In this document: piece after piece, positions 10,503 to 48,301 of the stretch
Position numbering within the stretch: position 1 is the first letter of the stretch
How the letters are laid out: each line of letters begins with the position of its first letter
Source of the DNA: a bacterium
GTDB lineage: Bacteria; Bacillota_I; Bacilli_A; RFN20; CAG-288
Reading direction: 5' to 3'
NCBI GenBank assembly: GCA_963643715.1
Contig: CAVILQ010000003.1
Span: 3,219-67,218, forward strand
Length of the DNA stretch: 64,000 nucleotides
The notes under the pieces: model-generated
Seen by the model: only the letters and a program-made list of their open reading frames with translations
What the model was told of the DNA's origin: nothing
The model's database searches: none
Made by a program: the position numbers and the translations under genes

Positions 10503-11356
10503 CTTTCTTTCCCCCTTTCTGTGAGTATCATAATCTGTTCAATTGTCGGTTTTGAAATGCTGACAGAGGAAGGTATCTTATCCTCATCTTCCTTTTTGAT
10601 TAAGGCCTCAAATGAATAGGGAGTCTCCTTGATTCCGATGATGATGTTATCCGGTATCTGTTCACCAATTGATTTCGAACAGATGAGCAATCGATAACTA
10701 TTGATAAAGGCATCCTTCTCATCGGAGAGGATGATCTTTCCGTTCTTGATATAGGTGATATAATCCGCAACTGCTTCCAAGTCTGAAATGATCTGTGTAG
10801 AGAAGATGATGCTGTGTTCTCCATCTCTGATATAGTTCTGAAATTCGCTGAGAACTTCATCTCTGGAGAAAGGATCCAATCCGGATGTTGGCTCATCTAG
10901 AATGAGAAGCTTAGCATGATGTGACATCGCCAAAGACAAAAGGAACTTAGTTTTCATGCCATTGGATAGTTCCTTGAATTTTTTCTTTTCGTCTAAGGAG
11001 AAGTGCTTGATCAAGGAGTTGTATTTCTCGTCATCAAAATGATGATAGAAAGGTGCAATTGCTTTTTTGATTGTGCAAAGTCTGAAGTTGGAATAGATAT
11101 CTAGTCCACCAAGCATCAATGCGACATCCTGCTTTAATTCGGATTCATTGGTATCTTCGAGTTTCTTTCCGAACAATGTGATTTCACCGGAATCAAAATG
11201 GATCAGTTTATAGATGGATTTGATGGTGGTAGTCTTTCCTGCTCCGTTCTTTCCGATGAAACCCATGATATATCCTGCTTCAAGAGAAAAGGACACATCC
11301 TGAAGGGCAAAGTTTGGATAGGACTTATGAAGATTCTTGACAGTCAGAATTGCCAT
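10499..11356 (-). CDS. ABC transporter ATP-binding protein
   Basis: Walker A GKNGAGKTT, signature LSNGMKTKFLL, Walker B LLILDEPTSGLDP; start set to MAILTVKNL with GGAGGTG RBS 5 nt upstream. Confidence 0.9.
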   Translation of the reverse strand: MAILTVKNLHKSYPNFALQDVSFSLEAGYIMGFIGKNGAGKTTTIKSIYKLIHFDSGEITLFGKKLEDTNESELKQDVALMLGGLDIYSNFRLCTIKKAIAPFYHHFDDEKYNSLIKHFSLDEKKKFKELSNGMKTKFLLSLAMSHHAKLLILDEPTSGLDPFSRDEVLSEFQNYIRDGEHSIIFSTQIISDLEAVADYITYIKNGKIILSDEKDAFINSYRLLICSKSIGEQIPDNIIIGIKETPYSFEALIKKEDEDKIPSSVSISKPTIEQIMILTERGKER

Positions 11357-42784: not shown

Positions 42785-43732
42785 CTATTTCTTGAATTTT
42801 CTTTGTTGTTCAGGCATAGAGCCATAATAGTCTTTGCCGTTTAGATACTTTTCAAATGTGGAATAGTTGAAACCGGATTTCAGAATATCATTGTAACAGT
42901 CTTCCAATATTTCAAAGGCGGAAGTGTGAAGCTCAAGGAAAGAGTCGGAATGCTCCTCACCAGTACAAGGATCAAGCCAAACGTTCTTATCAACGTTCAA
43001 TGTGGATGCATTGGCTTCTTTTGGATGATGCATAGCTGAAAGAGCAATGTTCTTACCCAATAGCTTTGCCTTGAAACCACCATGATGGTTCATTGACTTC
43101 AGCAAGGACTTCATATTCAAAATCGCATTCGTATACATATGCTTTGGAAGTCGACAGGAAAACATTTTCTCAAGGACAGGAACAAGGTTCCAATCAATGA
43201 TTTCAAGATTTCTCCTATTATCAGGAATGATATCCTGTGGATAAGAAAGAAAATGACTGATGGAATATTTGTTCGCTAAAGAACAGTCAATGTTTGTCTC
43301 AAAATATGCATGGTCAAAATGGTAGTGGGATGTGATTTTACCCTCATCATCAAAACCGGATTCATACAGGATGTAGGGATGCGCTTCTCGGTCTAACAAG
43401 TAGTGTGCGAATTGTCCGAAAATGAAGGCCTCAAACTTTTTCTTCTCTTTCACATTGTCGATGGAATAGGAAGTTTCAATTAGCAATTTGAAAAATTGTT
43501 TTCCGTTTGTTTTATGAAGCTTATTTCCTATTTTTTTCAAAGCAGTAGGAAGATGAAGTCCATTCTTCAGTAAAATGCCGACATAAAACAACGGATCAGG
43601 ACCTAACGATCCCAAAACAAGCATGTCATAATTTTCTTTGATGAACGAATCAATGCTCTCTAGATGGCCCAATTCGTTTTCGTGATTATAAAATCTCTTT
43701 ACAATCAAAGAATGAGCAAGAAGATTCGGCAT
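42785..43732 (-). CDS. zinc-dependent phospholipase C family-like protein (uncertain)
   Basis: N-terminal LLAHSLIV...GSLGPDPLFYVG and HYLLDREAHPYI His-rich pattern typical of this cytoplasmic family; family-level only. Confidence 0.4.
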   Translation of the reverse strand: MPNLLAHSLIVKRFYNHENELGHLESIDSFIKENYDMLVLGSLGPDPLFYVGILLKNGLHLPTALKKIGNKLHKTNGKQFFKLLIETSYSIDNVKEKKKFEAFIFGQFAHYLLDREAHPYILYESGFDDEGKITSHYHFDHAYFETNIDCSLANKYSISHFLSYPQDIIPDNRRNLEIIDWNLVPVLEKMFSCRLPKHMYTNAILNMKSLLKSMNHHGGFKAKLLGKNIALSAMHHPKEANASTLNVDKNVWLDPCTGEEHSDSFLELHTSAFEILEDCYNDILKSGFNYSTFEKYLNGKDYYGSMPEQQRKFKK

Positions 43733-43756
43733 TTTGATTCACCTTAATTATTGAAA

Positions 43757-44401
43757 TTAGAAATCAATCTTTACAAGAGAACCGATAACGCCTGTGCTTG
43801 CGCCGCCAACGGCATTTGATTCATCCGTATCAATATGCATAGCAAGAGCATATTTAGGAGATACACGAATAACAGTGTCACCGAGAACGGCACTTCTTCC
43901 GTTAGGAGAGACAATCTTGACAGCAACAATATCACCATTCTTGACATCAAATTTCTCTGCATCTTCCGGAGTCATATGGATATGTCTCTTTGCGATGATC
44001 ATACCCTCTTTGCAATCGAGTGATTTTCCGTTGAGAGGATTGACCAAAGTGACAGGTGCGCTACCCTCTAAGTCACCGGATTCTCTGACAGGAACGTTTG
44101 CCTTTAAGGAACGAGCCTCAGTCATGGAGATTTCGACCTGGTTGGCACTTCTGACAGGTCCTAAGATGGACATATTCTTGATTGTGAAATCCTTCTTTTC
44201 AATTTCACCAGTGACTTTGTTTTTGACAGAAGCATGATATACGATATCAAGTCTCTTATCAGAAGCAAACTGACCCGGCTGTGAAAGTTCCTTTCTAACA
44301 CCTAATACAGCACCATCGCCGAAAAGATATTCTAAAGCTTCCTGAGTGACATGGATATGATGTGCACTGGTTTCTACAATAAATGTGTCTTTTTCATTCA
44401 T
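43757..44401 (-). CDS. pduL: phosphate propanoyl/acetyl-transferase PduL family
   Basis: Two PduL half-domains with conserved SAHHIHVTQEALEYLFG and KRHIHMTPEDAEKFDVKNGDIV. Confidence 0.75.
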   Translation of the reverse strand: MNEKDTFIVETSAHHIHVTQEALEYLFGDGAVLGVRKELSQPGQFASDKRLDIVYHASVKNKVTGEIEKKDFTIKNMSILGPVRSANQVEISMTEARSLKANVPVRESGDLEGSAPVTLVNPLNGKSLDCKEGMIIAKRHIHMTPEDAEKFDVKNGDIVAVKIVSPNGRSAVLGDTVIRVSPKYALAMHIDTDESNAVGGASTGVIGSLVKIDF

Positions 44402-44469
44402 GATAATTTACCTCTTTAAAAATTGTACCACATTGACGAATAGTCGGATAAGAATATTAGCAAGACAGC

Positions 44470-44814
44470 TTATTTGTTGTGTTCTTTGTTGTATTTCTCT
44501 AATTCTTTGTTTGCTTGTTCTTGTTCCTTCAATATTCTGATAAAGTCTTCTAGGCTCTGTTGTTCTTCTTGGACCAACTGAACATCTTTGATTTCAGGAA
44601 TTTCATCCATAAGAAGGACAGCGATTGTATCAGAAACATCCGAACTTGCCATATAGCAGCCGTTGCATGCGCCGCTCATTTTCACATAGCAAGTGTTGCT
44701 ATCGAAATCGTAGTGATCCAAGTGGACATCACCGCCTTCACGCTGTAAAAACGGGCGCAGTCTCTCTAATACATCGTTGATTTTTTCACAAAATTTTTCT
44801 TGTTCTTCATTCAT
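44470..44814 (-). CDS. NifU/Nfu-type Fe-S cluster scaffold domain protein
   Basis: REGGDVHLDHYD...VKMSGACNGCYMASSDV matches Nfu C-terminal GGD..L...G.C.GC motif. Confidence 0.75.
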   Translation of the reverse strand: MNEEQEKFCEKINDVLERLRPFLQREGGDVHLDHYDFDSNTCYVKMSGACNGCYMASSDVSDTIAVLLMDEIPEIKDVQLVQEEQQSLEDFIRILKEQEQANKELEKYNKEHNK

Positions 44815-44919
44815 AACTGATTTCTCCGTGAAACATTATATCACTCATGTAATTTAACTTTTTGAAATAAAATTCATTTTTTCTCTTTTGTGCATATATG
44901 TATTTATGGAGGCACAAAT

Positions 44920-46071
44920 ATGAGTAATTTTCTATGCTACAGATACAGAATGAATCTGAAAGACGAACAAAAGGAAGAGTTTGACGAACTGTATAGGTGT
45001 TATGTCGCAGTTATCAATCAGTCGATTGCCTTGATCTCTGTGAATGATGGATTTGGAAAGAGAAATATAGATTTGGATTTCAGTTTATGGAATCAGAAAA
45101 TGAGTGGTTTGCCAGAAACATGTTACATCAGAAAACGATTCTCCCCCTTATTGCATTATATAAGGAATACAGTCAGATACTATGAAAGAAGCAGACTACA
45201 AGGAAGAGCAGTTTCTAAGTGCAAAAATCCTCAATCTATTGTAGCTTCAATTCCATTTTATCCGAAGGATGTCAATATAAACTTTAAACGAACATCACCA
45301 AAGATGGCAGAATTGAATCTCTTGCCATTTGGGCCGATTCAATTACAGTATCATAGGCCGTTTCCGAAAGATAGCCATTGCATCCTGATGACTATGAAAA
45401 GAGAACTAGATAAGAGGTATTATCTAGATTTCCTATTAAACAATGCATATAGCACTCTTTTGCCAAAAAGGAACATTGAATTAGATGATATACTTGGCAT
45501 CGATTTCTCTTTGAAGCATTTCTTTGTCTCTACAGATGACACTATCTTTGCAAATATGCAAATGATCGTACCATCAAGAAAGAAACAAAAACTGATAGAA
45601 ATACGAAGGAATAATTATATTCGCTCAGAAGATGAATCCAAAAACAAAGAAAGAAAAAGAATGCTATATGTGGAATCATTAAGACGAATAAAAGAAAACA
45701 GAAGACAATACTTCTATACGCTAGCTCACAAGATTTTTGAAAAGTATGAAGCAGTAGCAGTTGAAACACTGGAACTTAGCAAAATAAAGGAAAACAAAAA
45801 TTATTCAAAATTGATTGTGAAGGAAAGTTATCATCAGTTTGAAATGATATTAGATGAAGTGGCGAAGAAAGAAGGAAAAAGAGTAATCAGAATCCCTAAA
45901 TGGTATCCATCATCAAAAATCTGTTCGTTTTGTGAAGCGAAAAAAGAAGACCTGAAAGTATATGAGAAGGAATGGATATGCCCTAACTGTAAAAAGATAG
46001 TCCAAAGAGACAAAAATGCGGCAGAGAACATCAAAAGGAAAGCCTATGAAATGATCAAAAAAGAAAAGTGA
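44920..46071 (+). CDS. tnpB: IS200/IS605-family TnpB (OrfB) RNA-guided endonuclease-like transposase accessory protein
   Basis: C-terminal zinc finger CSFC...CPNC followed by RDKNAAENIKRKA (RuvC-III DxNAAxNI hallmark); GGAGG RBS at 44909; no tnpA nearby. Confidence 0.85.
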   Translation: MSNFLCYRYRMNLKDEQKEEFDELYRCYVAVINQSIALISVNDGFGKRNIDLDFSLWNQKMSGLPETCYIRKRFSPLLHYIRNTVRYYERSRLQGRAVSKCKNPQSIVASIPFYPKDVNINFKRTSPKMAELNLLPFGPIQLQYHRPFPKDSHCILMTMKRELDKRYYLDFLLNNAYSTLLPKRNIELDDILGIDFSLKHFFVSTDDTIFANMQMIVPSRKKQKLIEIRRNNYIRSEDESKNKERKRMLYVESLRRIKENRRQYFYTLAHKIFEKYEAVAVETLELSKIKENKNYSKLIVKESYHQFEMILDEVAKKEGKRVIRIPKWYPSSKICSFCEAKKEDLKVYEKEWICPNCKKIVQRDKNAAENIKRKAYEMIKKEK

Positions 46072-46260
46072 AATGAATGTTTTCCAAGCCCATGGAAATA
46101 AGTCATTGTAGTCTGAGAAAAAACACCCTGAAGAGAAAACTCTAGAGATGACAGCGTAAGACATACGCATGGGACAACTCGAATCTAGTTCGAAATCAAT
46201 GAAAAAAGGTACTCGATATGAAAAACAAATCGATTATAAGAATAAAATCAGAATAGCGGA
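45990..46260 (+). ncRNA. Candidate TnpB omega-RNA / right-end scaffold region
   Basis: Inference from family biology; stem gcccatgg(46088-46095)...catgggac(46168-46175) and further local hairpins 3' of tnpB. Confidence 0.3.
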
Positions 46261-46337
46261 GAGAACAAATAGGAAAAGATTGAAACATGATTAAGAAGAG
46301 ATATGAAACTCTTCAGTTTTTCAATTTGGTATAGATA

Positions 46338-46370
46338 GTATAAAAACAAAAAAAGCCAATCACTTGGCTT
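46338..46370 (-). terminator. Rho-independent terminator of tRNA operon
   Basis: aagccaa-tcac-ttggctt; on minus strand followed by TTTTTTTGTTTTT. Confidence 0.55.
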
Positions 46371-46401
46371 TAAAGACGATATAGTAGGACAGGAGATTTA
46401 A

Positions 46402-46489
46402 TGGTGCCCGGGGCCGGACTTGAACCGGCACGGATTATTAGTCCGCGGGATTTTAAATCCCGTGCGTCTACCGATTTCGCCACCCGGGC
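46402..46489 (-). tRNA. tRNA-Leu (anticodon TAA), long variable arm, CCA encoded
   Basis: Folded by hand: acceptor GCCCGGG/CCCGGGC, anticodon loop TTTAAAA, variable arm CGGACTAATAATCCGTG, T-loop TTCAAGT. Confidence 0.85.
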
Positions 46490-46496
46490 AAGAAGA

Positions 46497-46572
46497 TGGT
46501 GACTCGTATGGAACTCGAATCCATGGCCCCTTGATTAAAAGTCAAGTGCTCTACCGACTGAGCTAACGAGTC
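46497..46572 (-). tRNA. tRNA-Lys (anticodon TTT), CCA encoded
   Basis: Acceptor GACTCGT/ACGAGTC, D-arm GCTCAGTCGGTAGAGC, anticodon stem CTTGA/TCAAG loop CTTTTAA, T-arm ATGGA-TTCGAGT-TCCAT. Confidence 0.9.
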
Positions 46573-46579
46573 ATTTAAT

Positions 46580-46654
46580 TGGCTGGGATAGAAGGGCTCG
46601 AACCTTCGCATATCAGAGTCAAAGTCTGATGCCTTACCACTTGGCTATATCCCA
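46580..46654 (-). tRNA. tRNA-Gln (anticodon TTG), CCA encoded
   Basis: TGGGATATAGCCAAGTGGTAAGGC...CTTTGAC...TATCCCAGCCA closely parallels Bacillus tRNA-Gln. Confidence 0.9.
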
Positions 46655-46709
46655 ACATATGGCCAGTGCACTGAATATTCCAACTGAAACATCAATAAGA
46701 TAACATAGG

Positions 46710-46793
46710 TGGTGGGCGGTCGTGGATTTGAACCACGGAACCCGAAGGAACAGATTTACAGTCTGCCGCATTTGGCCGCTTTGCTAACCGCCC
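46710..46793 (-). tRNA. tRNA-Tyr (anticodon GTA), long variable arm, CCA encoded
   Basis: Acceptor GGGCGGT/ACCGCCC, anticodon loop CTGTAAA, variable hairpin CCTTCGGG, T-arm CGTGG-TTCAAAT-CCACG. Confidence 0.85.
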
Positions 46794-46822
46794 ACATATT
46801 ACGCAACTGATCTTTACAAGAA

Positions 46823-46899
46823 TGGTGGATGCTAAGAGACTTGAACTCCTGACCCCCGCCGTGTAAAGGCGATGCTCTAACCAACTGAGCTAAGCATCC
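46823..46899 (-). tRNA. tRNA-Val (anticodon TAC), CCA encoded
   Basis: Acceptor GGATGCT/AGCATCC, D-arm GCTCAGTTGGTTAGAGC, anticodon stem TCGCC/GGCGG loop TTTACAC, T-loop TTCAAGT. Confidence 0.85.
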
Positions 46900-46921
46900 G
46901 CCGAATTTTCAGCGCTTTGAT

Positions 46922-46950
46922 ATTATAACAATACAAAACTGATAATTCAA
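46922..46950 (-). promoter_or_regulatory. sigma-A type promoter of the tRNA operon (TTGAAT-N17-TATAAT)
   Basis: Read on minus strand: -35 TTGAAT (46945-46950), 17-nt spacer, -10 TATAAT (46922-46927), ~20 nt upstream of tRNA-Val. Confidence 0.6.
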
Positions 46951-46960
46951 GCAAATATTG

Positions 46961-46992
46961 CTCATAGATTCATAATTTTATGAACCTATGAG
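46961..46992 (-). terminator. pgi terminator (15-bp near-perfect hairpin)
   Basis: ctcatagattcataa-ttt-tatgaacctatgag, 1 mismatch; between pgi stop and tRNA promoter; T-run weak. Confidence 0.45.
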
Positions 46993-47011
46993 CAGATGAG
47001 TGTTTTATTGC

Positions 47012-48301
47012 TTATTTGTTTTCGTAACCAGGCTTGCCCAATAACTTAAACATATTGGATTTATAGATTTCAACGCCAGGCTGGTTAAACGGATTGATGC
47101 CAAGAAGATAAGCAGAGTAAGCGCAAGCTCTGAAGAAGAAATATACAAGGTTACCGAGATTGTAAGCATCCATTTTGTCGATGTCGATGACAATGGCTGG
47201 TGTATGTCCTTCTGTGTGAGCCTTTAAGGTGGCTTCATAAGCTTTGCTGTTGATATAGGACATATTCTTGCCAGAGAGATAATTTAAATTGTCTAAATTA
47301 TCATTGTCAAACGGAACAACAACGTCCTCATTCGGATTCTTTACATTGATGATAGTTTCAAACATCAATGGAGTCCCCTGCTGAATGAACTGACCCATAG
47401 AATGCAAATCCGTAGTGAAAGTTGCGGATGTACAAAGAAGAGCCTGATAGTCCTTGCCTTCTGATTCATCGAAAAGCTGTTTTAACCATTCTCCAATCAT
47501 CTGATACTGGAGATTGTATGTAACAAACATTTCGCAGGATTTTCTCTTCTCGATATTCATCAAATATCTTAAAGCACCATAATAATAGGCAGGATTTTCC
47601 TTATAATCCAAGGAAGAGTAGTCCTTTTCGCCATCGACTGCGCCTTGGATGAATTTCTCAATATCAATTCCAGCAACAGCAATAGGTAAAAGGCCGACAG
47701 GAGTAATGACAGAATATCTTCCACCAACATCATCGGGAATGACAAAACAATCATATCCCTCTTTATCGGCTTCCTTCTTCAAGGCACCACGAGCCTTATC
47801 TGTTGTTGCAAACACGGCATCTTTTAAGATTTCTTTTCCGTATTTTTCAACCAATAAATTCTTTAACAATCTGAATGAAACAGCAGTTTCAGTTGTTGTG
47901 CCACTCTTTGAGATGACATTGATAGCAAATTTCTTATTCTTCAAATGATTAAGAACCTGAGCGGAATAGTCAGAAGACAAAGTGTTTCCGAAGAAAATGA
48001 TTTCGAAATCATCAGCGGGATATAATCCGCGAATTGCCTCGATGACAGCACGCGCACCCAAATAGGAACCACCGATTCCACAAACGACCAAACAATCAAA
48101 ATTCTTTCTGATTTTATCAGCAGCGGTTTTGATGTGATTGATTTCGTCCTTAGAAAGTTTGGAAGAATAATCCAACCATCCTAAGAAATCATTGCCGAGA
48201 CCGGTTTTTCCTTCGATTGTCTTTGCAACTGCAAGACCTTTTTCATCAATGACTGATAAGTCTAAGACACCTTCATTTTGAATCAATGAAACTTTTACCA
48301 T
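47012..48301 (-). CDS. pgi: glucose-6-phosphate isomerase
   Basis: PGI signatures DYSSKLSKDEI..., GIGGSYLGARAV, ISKSGTTTETAVSFR; 429 aa. Confidence 0.95.
   Translation of the reverse strand: MVKVSLIQNEGVLDLSVIDEKGLAVAKTIEGKTGLGNDFLGWLDYSSKLSKDEINHIKTAADKIRKNFDCLVVCGIGGSYLGARAVIEAIRGLYPADDFEIIFFGNTLSSDYSAQVLNHLKNKKFAINVISKSGTTTETAVSFRLLKNLLVEKYGKEILKDAVFATTDKARGALKKEADKEGYDCFVIPDDVGGRYSVITPVGLLPIAVAGIDIEKFIQGAVDGEKDYSSLDYKENPAYYYGALRYLMNIEKRKSCEMFVTYNLQYQMIGEWLKQLFDESEGKDYQALLCTSATFTTDLHSMGQFIQQGTPLMFETIINVKNPNEDVVVPFDNDNLDNLNYLSGKNMSYINSKAYEATLKAHTEGHTPAIVIDIDKMDAYNLGNLVYFFFRACAYSAYLLGINPFNQPGVEIYKSNMFKLLGKPGYENK

Follow-up and report, generated by a model that had tools for sequence, protein, structure and literature searches.

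The question that this locus raises is why a bacterium keeps a lone gene for a TnpB protein at a place where no mobile element can be recognised around it. The gene, tnpB, lies in a stretch of 64,000 nucleotides (nt) from contig CAVILQ010000003.1 (assembly GCA_963643715.1, positions 3,219 to 67,218; lineage Bacillota_I, Bacilli_A, RFN20, CAG-288). This whole stretch is called the window below, and its numbering is used throughout. An earlier reading of the sequence, here called the original prediction, had taken the gene for a solo tnpB of the IS605 type with a candidate omega RNA (ωRNA), wedged between nfu and a tRNA operon. We consider it probable that the locus is an ancient, immobilised TnpB-ωRNA module, that is, a single-copy vertical gene kept by selection as a working ribonucleoprotein, and TnpB is on this account a candidate for an RNA-guided protein recruited by the host.

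Data and searches

The DNA examined was the 64-kb window of the genome and, for the relatives, about 6 kb of flank on each side. Relatives were sought by a word-indexed search of 5.8 billion proteins and by a phmmer search run exhaustively over 1.84 billion cluster representatives. Additional loci were sought using a DNA pattern made from the RNA scaffold described below, which led to four GTDB species representatives and one JGI contig. The set of placed protein clusters has 13 members: six close relatives, five distant ones, one close variant of a distant relative, and the window's own. Cluster P0247 from the profile search, to which no genomic position was assigned, was left out of this set. 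The clade carrying the locus is a family-level group of uncultured gut Bacilli.

The TnpB protein

The gene has the following position and residues.

44920-46071, plus strand: tnpB coding sequence, 383 amino acids from ATG, with the RuvC residues D195, E282 and D364 and the zinc-finger cysteines C335, C338, C354 and C357

Judged from its sequence and a predicted structure, the open reading frame (ORF) is a full-length TnpB with the WED-REC-RuvC-TNB fold and an intact nuclease centre. It matches the NCBIfam model NF040570 ('RNA-guided endonuclease TnpB family') over residues 7-374 with 121.2 bits against a cut-off of 100, and Pfam PF07282 with 60.6 bits against 26.3. The match to PF01385 stayed below the cut-off (23.2 against 30.5). 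An AlphaFold (AF2) model of the protein has a predicted local distance difference test score (pLDDT) of 84.7, and the best full-length Foldseek matches are the TnpB proteins of ISFba1 and ISDra2 (8iaz, 8h1j), with E-values of about 1e-18 to 1e-19 over 387-389 aligned columns.

In a HMMER alignment with the ISDra2 structures (8exa, 8h1j), D195, E282 and D364 fall on the catalytic residues D191, E278 and D361 (numbering of Karvelis et al. 2021). Residue invariance was scored in an alignment of 11 orthologues that are 30-80% identical to the window's TnpB. The D/E/D triad, the four cysteines of the zinc finger, R363 and N366 are invariant in it. The ATG start and the GGAGG Shine-Dalgarno sequence are likewise kept in the orthologues. 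The identification of the ORF as TnpB is thus borne out by two family models and by the fold, its zinc-finger and RuvC hallmarks are present and invariant, and the question put in the original prediction, whether the RuvC residues are intact, can be answered in the affirmative for all three.

The ωRNA scaffold

Directly 3' of tnpB we find what appears, from comparison of the sequences, to be a structured ωRNA-like RNA with covariation support. Its predicted parts are the following.

46081-46175, plus strand: putative ωRNA scaffold, 95 nt, wholly intergenic, consisting of H1, H2, a GAG/CTC mini-stem, H3 and a pseudoknot
46081-46098, plus strand: hairpin H1, TTTCCA (46081-86) with TGGAAA (46093-98); the loop holds the pseudoknot 5' strand GCCCA (46088-92)
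46102-46152, plus strand: long-range stem H2, GTCAT (46102-06) with ATGAC (46148-52), enclosing the invariant cores CTGAGAAAAAACACCC and GAAAACTCT
46154-46168, plus strand: hairpin H3, GCGTA and TACGC around the loop AGACA
46170-46175, plus strand: pseudoknot 3' strand TGGG-A-C, pairing with 46088-92

The scaffold is nearly invariant among genomes in which TnpB is 48-80% identical. A slightly longer block (46081-46185), which begins 10 nt past the stop codon, is nearly invariant even where TnpB is 48-62% identical, and the remainder of the intergenic region is near the shuffled baseline. In distant orthologues the scaffold is recognisable, with alterations, and the alterations keep the pairing. 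H1 occurs as ATTCCC/GGGAAT, TCTCCC/GGGAGA and AATCCC/GGGATA (the last with 5 of 6 pairs), and H2 as GCCAT/ATGGT and GCCAC/GTGGT. The stem of H3 is swapped as a whole (ATTGAAG/CTTCAAT, ATTAGT/ACTAAT, GTGT/ACAC, GCA/TGC). In three lineages (L011, L013 and L016) the pseudoknot reads GCCTC/GAGG-A-C, which involves two compensatory positions.

RNAalifold gave the three helices and the GAG/CTC mini-stem, with 9 of 19 pairs compensatory. The pseudoknot was added by segmentation by hand and checked against the real sequences. The MAFFT alignment has pairing in 88.7% of its cells, whereas sliding the partners as a control leaves 37-45%; changes on both sides are seen in 12 pairs, against 3-5 in these controls, and none of 500 shuffles was as good. 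A covariance model scores 120 bits at the window's scaffold, no other place in the window exceeding 14 bits, and it finds exactly one strong match per locus (85-120 bits). Folding of the single sequence was uninformative (z = -1.5), and the structure rests on this comparative evidence. Rfam has no family that matches this region, even with E <= 10 allowed; the tRNAs alone pass the gathering score. An ωRNA overlapping the ORF was considered and ruled out: identity at synonymous sites in the last 25 codons (0.50) equals that in the rest of the gene.

The original prediction had placed an ωRNA-like scaffold 3' of the ORF, and covariation argues for its helices and pseudoknot. The long-range pairing that it had noticed between gcccatgg and catgggac is the pseudoknot of GCCCA (46088-92) with TGGG-A-C (46170-75), which covaries in the relatives. 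A conserved RNA, for which it had proposed a covariance-model search, is present once at each locus, though no Rfam family covers it.

One locus and vertical inheritance

The neighbourhood of tnpB consists of the following features.

44470-44814, minus strand: nfu, the neighbour of tnpB
44815-44919, no strand: nfu-tnpB spacer of 105 nt, with divergent promoter signals and the tnpB Shine-Dalgarno sequence
44835-44840, minus strand: nfu -10 box TATAAT; on the plus strand the motif ATTATA is kept in most lineages
46295-46314, plus strand: terminator-like hairpin with a T-run, a possible 3' end of the tnpB/ωRNA transcript
46352-46371, minus strand: terminator hairpin of the convergent tRNA operon
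46402-46899, minus strand: operon of the tRNA genes for Leu, Lys, Gln, Tyr and Val, convergent with tnpB and followed by pgi

From the tnpB stop codon it is 330 nt to tRNA-Leu and 280 nt to the terminator hairpin of the operon.

The word-indexed search found six close relatives, at 99, 80, 62, 60, 61 and 48% identity, after which identity falls to 28%. The phmmer search added five full-length relatives at 31-39%. The next matches are ordinary TnpBs, nearly all aligned over the C-terminal two-thirds only, and a profile search shows a steep drop after 10 clusters, from 462 to 203 bits. All 11 relatives that were placed share one gene order (TSCPD, PLC-like, PduL-like, NifU, then TnpB, the tRNA operon and PGI) with one copy each. 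All of the 13 placed protein clusters are at the orthologous locus, and the five loci found by pattern likewise lie between nfu and the tRNA operon. Identity of the neighbouring proteins to those of the window across these genomes is as follows.

PGI: 79-99%
NifU: 60-95%
PLC-like protein: 52-96%

TnpB distances follow those of the host proteins (Mantel r 0.93, p = 2e-4), and neighbour-joining trees of TnpB and host agree for the shallow clades and for the pair L011/L013. The comparison of these sequences indicates that tnpB is a single-copy gene inherited vertically at one locus across a family-level clade. An outgroup in which NifU is 54% identical has another gene order and no tnpB. It was tried as an empty site for defining the ends of the element and dropped, the gene order being different.

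This distribution bears directly on the possibility of a non-autonomous IS200/IS605 insertion sequence (IS), IS1341-like and mobilised in trans by a tnpA elsewhere, which would have hit a hotspot at the tRNA operon repeatedly. In favour of such an element, tnpB commonly occurs solo, the nuclease here is intact and an ωRNA is present, and the genome was inspected over 64 kb only. On the other side, every relative that could be placed from the two protein searches is at one locus, TnpB and host have congruent trees, and a single copy is seen: searches of the 64-kb window with the protein, the DNA and the RNA each found this one only. No matching terminal hairpins or terminal inverted repeats were found at the locus, and the scaffold pattern has zero matches in IMG/VR. 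The left end of an IS cannot fit upstream of tnpB, because the 105-nt spacer already holds the nfu -10 box and the Shine-Dalgarno sequence of tnpB. At all loci viewed the genes beside tnpB are nfu and the tRNAs, with no tnpA among the neighbours, and the best match to a TnpA probe (a hand-written IS200 TnpA sequence) anywhere in the 64-kb window has E=1.6. The locus thus shows nothing of what marks a mobile IS200/IS605 element, neither ends nor TnpA nor multiple copies at varying sites, and we regard a mobilisable element as largely refuted and very improbable.

Several parts of the original prediction are settled by these results. It had stated that no tnpA is nearby, and none is seen among the neighbours or, with this probe, in the window. 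The nfu promoter does lie upstream of tnpB, at 44835-40, as it had supposed; the left arm in which the promoter was to be contained is absent, the spacer being only 105 nt long. The notion of an inserted IS with definable ends and paralogues has to be given up in view of one copy in the window, an orthologous site throughout and a phylogeny congruent with the host, and the search that it had proposed for hairpins at the left and right ends found no matching pair. It had finally described a domesticated or decayed remnant as one with mutated RuvC residues and no paralogous copies. The second of these holds in the window and the first does not, and a lack of copies together with an intact RuvC speaks for a module that is immobilised but functional, and against an active IS or a decayed remnant.

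Selection on the protein and the RNA

The ratio of nonsynonymous to synonymous substitution (dN/dS) of TnpB is 0.06-0.09 wherever it is measurable, with synonymous divergence saturated (dS >1) in most pairs. Within the species cluster there are 14 TnpB variants on about 18 contigs, and all 11 full-length variants are intact. As judged by comparison among these sequences, the TnpB protein and its RNA are under strong purifying selection.

We therefore give least credence to a functionless, decaying relic with an ORF that is intact by chance or through recent arrival, since the signatures of selection on protein and RNA refute it. Such a relic would accord with a protein that evolves faster than its neighbours, with a frameshift in one metagenome-assembled genome (MAG) and with a target that is still only a candidate (see below). 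It does not accord with dN/dS values this low at saturated synonymous sites, with ORFs intact in all other lineages as well as in the strain variants, or with a 95-nt RNA that is nearly invariant and carries compensatory changes.

Proposed position of the guide

In the ωRNA of ISDra2 the loop of stem 1 provides one strand of a pseudoknot, stem 2 encloses stem 3, and stem 4, the pseudoknot 3' strand and the guide follow. The 3' strand occupies positions -6 to -2, and one nucleotide separates it from the guide (PMC10097598). The window's RNA has the same layout, with these counterparts.

46081-98: stem 1 of ISDra2, with the pseudoknot 5' strand at 46088-92
46102-06 with 46148-52: stem 2
46154-68: stem 4
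46170-75: pseudoknot 3' strand

Because the layout maps one-to-one on the ISDra2 ωRNA, we infer that the guide starts at about 46177, and not at 46186 where conservation stops. With this start, guide nt 1-9 would be conserved family-wide and the later positions would drift. The segments concerned are the following.

46176-46185, plus strand: conserved 10-mer AACTCGAATC, candidate for position -1 and guide nt 1-9 by ISDra2 homology
46186-46201, plus strand: variable continuation of the candidate guide, or 3' flank, with identity near the shuffled baseline; it holds a TTCGA able to pair with the TCGAA of the 10-mer
46497-46572, minus strand: tRNA-Lys(TTT) gene, whose antisense T-arm at 46512-46521 equals the 10-mer; a candidate transposon-adjacent motif (TAM), ATGGA, is at 46508-12

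Candidate guide nt 1-9 read as follows in the different lineages.

Window's sub-clade: ACTCGAATC
L006/L007, L012 and L013: GCTCGAATC
L011: GTTCGAACC
L016: GCACGAATC
L014: GCACGAATT

The 10-mer AACTCGAATC is present exactly twice in the 64-kb window, at 46176-85 and on the plus strand of the tRNA-Lys T-arm (46512-21). For all 10 lineages tested, the guide region matches best to a tRNA gene of the neighbouring operon, on its antisense strand; for 9 of these lineages the matched part is the T-arm, and the shuffle p-values per lineage run from 0.000 to 0.095. In the window's sub-clade the match is to tRNA-Lys (window 10/10, L002 13/14, L005 22/29 columns). L011, L012, L013 and L016 match tRNA-Gln (12/13; 18-19/22 columns including a 2-nt gap; 15/18 columns including a 1-nt gap). 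We regard the link to the tRNA T-arm as a lead suggested by sequence likeness, and not as a result.

Two further observations concern this region. In L011 and L013 the likeness to antisense tRNA-Gln reaches upstream into the pseudoknot strand (ATAGAGGACGGCTCGAATCTTC against ATAGA--AGGGCTCGAACCTTC; the tRNA-Gln counterpart in the window is 46588-46609), which might go back to an ancestral insertion into a tRNA gene, to a likeness between right end and TAM, or to mimicry of the T-arm. At 46180-46196 of the window the TCGAA of the 10-mer is followed 5 nt on by TTCGA, forming a hairpin or, TTCGAA being palindromic, a direct repeat. The complement is kept at varying distance in most other lineages (TCGAATC..GATTCGA in L013, GAATCC/GGATTC in L016, CGAAT..ATTCG in L012).

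A guide starting at 46186 was also tried. Searches with 16-mers against each lineage's own DNA gave partial matches only, which we judged to be chance. One is an exact match of 13 nt to an ABC-ATPase gene of the window (10668-10680, minus strand), the other an exact match of 12 nt to ispD of L004 and L010 (9629-9640 in L004); they were set aside because they lie in unrelated coding regions and have inconsistent 5' flanks. By a rough estimate of ours, not computed, the two together would be about 1% likely by chance. Phage targets were sought with five 20-nt guides in IMG/VR, and four had no match. The 20-nt flank of L004 occurs exactly in two contigs (L026 2495-2514 and L027 2563-2582), where the ORFs encode AEVMKK and the flanks are unrelated, and these matches are probably coincidental; an anti-phage guide gains no support from this search. 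For a target of the guide in a promoter no match was found.

Proposed mechanism and its weighing

In the mechanism that we propose, a promoter of tnpB's own, lying in the 105-nt spacer, would drive its transcription, and read-through would yield the 95-nt scaffold with stem 1, the pseudoknot and stems 2-4. TnpB would bind the scaffold and trim it with RuvC; co-transcription and RuvC-dependent trimming of the ωRNA have been reported for TnpBs in general (PMC10705468). The bases right after the pseudoknot, from about 46177, would serve as guide. Such a fixed short guide would most likely bind a conserved DNA sequence instead of cutting it, a proposal made because only the first 9-10 guide bases are conserved and the later ones drift. 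The best candidate for a target would be the T-arm of tRNA genes, for example that of the adjacent tRNA-Lys, and RuvC may be kept for processing of the ωRNA or for cutting fully matched DNA.

Binding of this kind has precedents. A wild-type TnpB with a 10-nt guide binds DNA and does not cut it (PMC13507860), and the guides of TldR proteins have about 9-11 nt (PMC10705468). Applied to the window, a nuclease-competent TnpB would be a DNA binder with a hard-wired guide of 9-10 nt against a tRNA T-arm, here that of tRNA-Lys 335 nt away with the TAM ATGGA, and complementarity over about 10 nt would give binding without cutting. We put this forward as a speculative proposal and rather doubt it. Such a ribonucleoprotein might have a modulating effect on the convergent tRNA operon, or it might label tRNA loci.

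A number of points weigh against a module kept for the host and against its short guide. An invariant nuclease centre suits cutting more naturally than binding alone. The tRNA target is a candidate only, suggested by 64 kb of the genome, and the 9-mers of distant lineages match their adjacent tRNAs at 8-9 of 10 positions, sometimes with mismatches at guide positions 1-2. TTCGAA is a palindrome and a common T-loop motif, and the likeness could be partly due to chance or structural mimicry. The 10-mer could also be a family-specific linker of the scaffold, in which case the true guide would start at 46186.

Other points concern the rate of change of the gene. The median p-distance of TnpB is 2.25 times that of host proteins, and TnpB is 48-80% identical where the neighbouring proteins are 83-98% identical. 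At four-fold sites the identity of tnpB is 0.20-0.41, against 0.48-0.70 in the adjacent host genes of the same genome pairs (window 42785-48301); possible reasons are that codon bias is weaker, that mutation is locally more frequent or that the alleles are older. In L007, a MAG from Hadza gut, tnpB has a 1-nt deletion at about position 720 relative to the 95%-identical L006, which may be a genuine frameshift or come from faulty assembly; the ωRNA scaffold is intact in L007.

The invariant nuclease centre is also what one would expect of a module that persists selfishly without transposition. As a homing or addiction device, it would have its own right flank as guide, a chromosome that lost the element, for instance after recombining with an empty allele, would regain a site with TAM and guide match and would be cut and then repaired from an occupied copy, and nuclease and scaffold would serve the element and not the host. 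The nearly neutral drift of the sequence past the 10-mer is expected if the guide is simply the flank, and restorative homing has been given as the natural role of TnpB, with persistence as a toxin-like module also proposed (PMC13565253; PMC10691335). However, such a device needs empty alleles over family-level time, and none were seen. All sampled lineages carry the element, and nothing suggests empty alleles within the window's species, where TnpB was found on about 18 contigs and NifU on 14. Neither a left end nor a TAM can be defined, and the contrast between 9-10 conserved nucleotides after the pseudoknot and drifting later bases is left unexplained. We think selfish persistence, the chief competing explanation, unlikely, and prefer the immobilised module that is maintained by selection as a working ribonucleoprotein.

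Relation to known systems

The nearest characterised system in protein family, fold, D/E/D triad and zinc finger is the TnpB-ωRNA of ISDra2 (IS200/IS605; PDB 8exa and 8h1j), although the two proteins are only about 20-28% identical. Unlike ISDra2, the present locus shows no TnpA, left end or other copies, and it is vertical at one site. Its scaffold has about 95 nt and does not overlap the ORF, as against 116 nt in ISDra2, and the bases at the guide position are conserved across species where those of ISDra2 are arbitrary flank. No CRISPR-like repeats or ωRNA arrays were found in 44400-46420 and the neighbours are housekeeping genes, so that the adjacent array and adaptation genes of a Cas12 (type V CRISPR-Cas) system are not seen.

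TldR proteins (Wiegand et al., PMC10705468) resemble the locus in being domesticated and non-mobile, with a conserved neighbourhood and an adjacent guide RNA. Their scaffolds have about 97-100 nt, close to the 95 nt found here, and their effective guides 9-16 nt (PMC10705468). In TldRs, by contrast, RuvC residues are gone and frequently also the C-terminal segment with zinc finger and RuvC, all of which are invariant here. By its sequence the window's TnpB thus lies outside TldR, which is defined by a mutated RuvC triad or loss of the C-terminal segment. The wild-type TnpB of ISDge10 with a guide truncated to 10 nt (PMC13507860) is a nuclease-competent TnpB that binds without cutting, as proposed here. 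That system was engineered and used in human cells, whereas the present one is a natural locus.

The locus belongs to the category, described by Altae-Tran et al. 2023 (PNAS, PMC10691335), of TnpBs that are non-mobile and lineage-fixed and whose RuvC is apparently active. It shares with them immobility, fixation across species, an intact catalytic site and the lack of a partner gene. In that survey the clades are listed in bulk without mechanism; to this the present analysis adds an ωRNA supported by covariation, an analysis of selection and one specific sequence as candidate fixed guide. Two recent surveys draw attention to TnpBs that are immobile and keep an intact nuclease as an unexplored class (Altae-Tran et al., PMC10691335; Wiegand et al., PMC10705468), the latter naming them as future work. 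The present locus is an unusually clean case of the class, with one site, one copy, a deep vertical history, selection on protein and RNA, and a scaffold that is compact (95 nt) and lies clear of the gene. If binding by a fixed short guide were true, RNA-guided regulation by relatives of TnpB would not need loss of the nuclease. In this locus TldR would then have a first counterpart that keeps its nuclease, and the engineered switch in which a short guide binds and a long guide cuts would have a natural equivalent; protein and scaffold would make a small natural platform for binding or cutting.

Other features of the locus

Downstream of the candidate guide there is one more feature.

46218-46264, plus strand: tiny ORF, 12 codons long here and 14-16 in relatives, with Shine-Dalgarno sequence AAAGGAGG and ATG; its stop abuts the invariant CGGAGAGA (46257-64)

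The tiny ORF occurs in 5 of 6 lineages of the window's sub-clade; L006/L007 and the distant lineages lack it. A conserved peptide was considered and rejected: the sequences of the lineages are unrelated, and close pairs differ non-synonymously.

In the outgroup (L020-L022) nifU is followed by a second, shorter ORF with a NifU domain, then by genes for PduL-like and PLC-like proteins and the Rnf complex, and upstream of nifU there is neither a tRNA operon nor tnpB. The record of L007 is labelled 'uncultured Bacilli bacterium'. For two contigs with the same locus the label is 'Waltera intestinalis' (L009, 2.7 kb) and 'Oscillospiraceae bacterium' (L010), probably through errors of binning or labelling.

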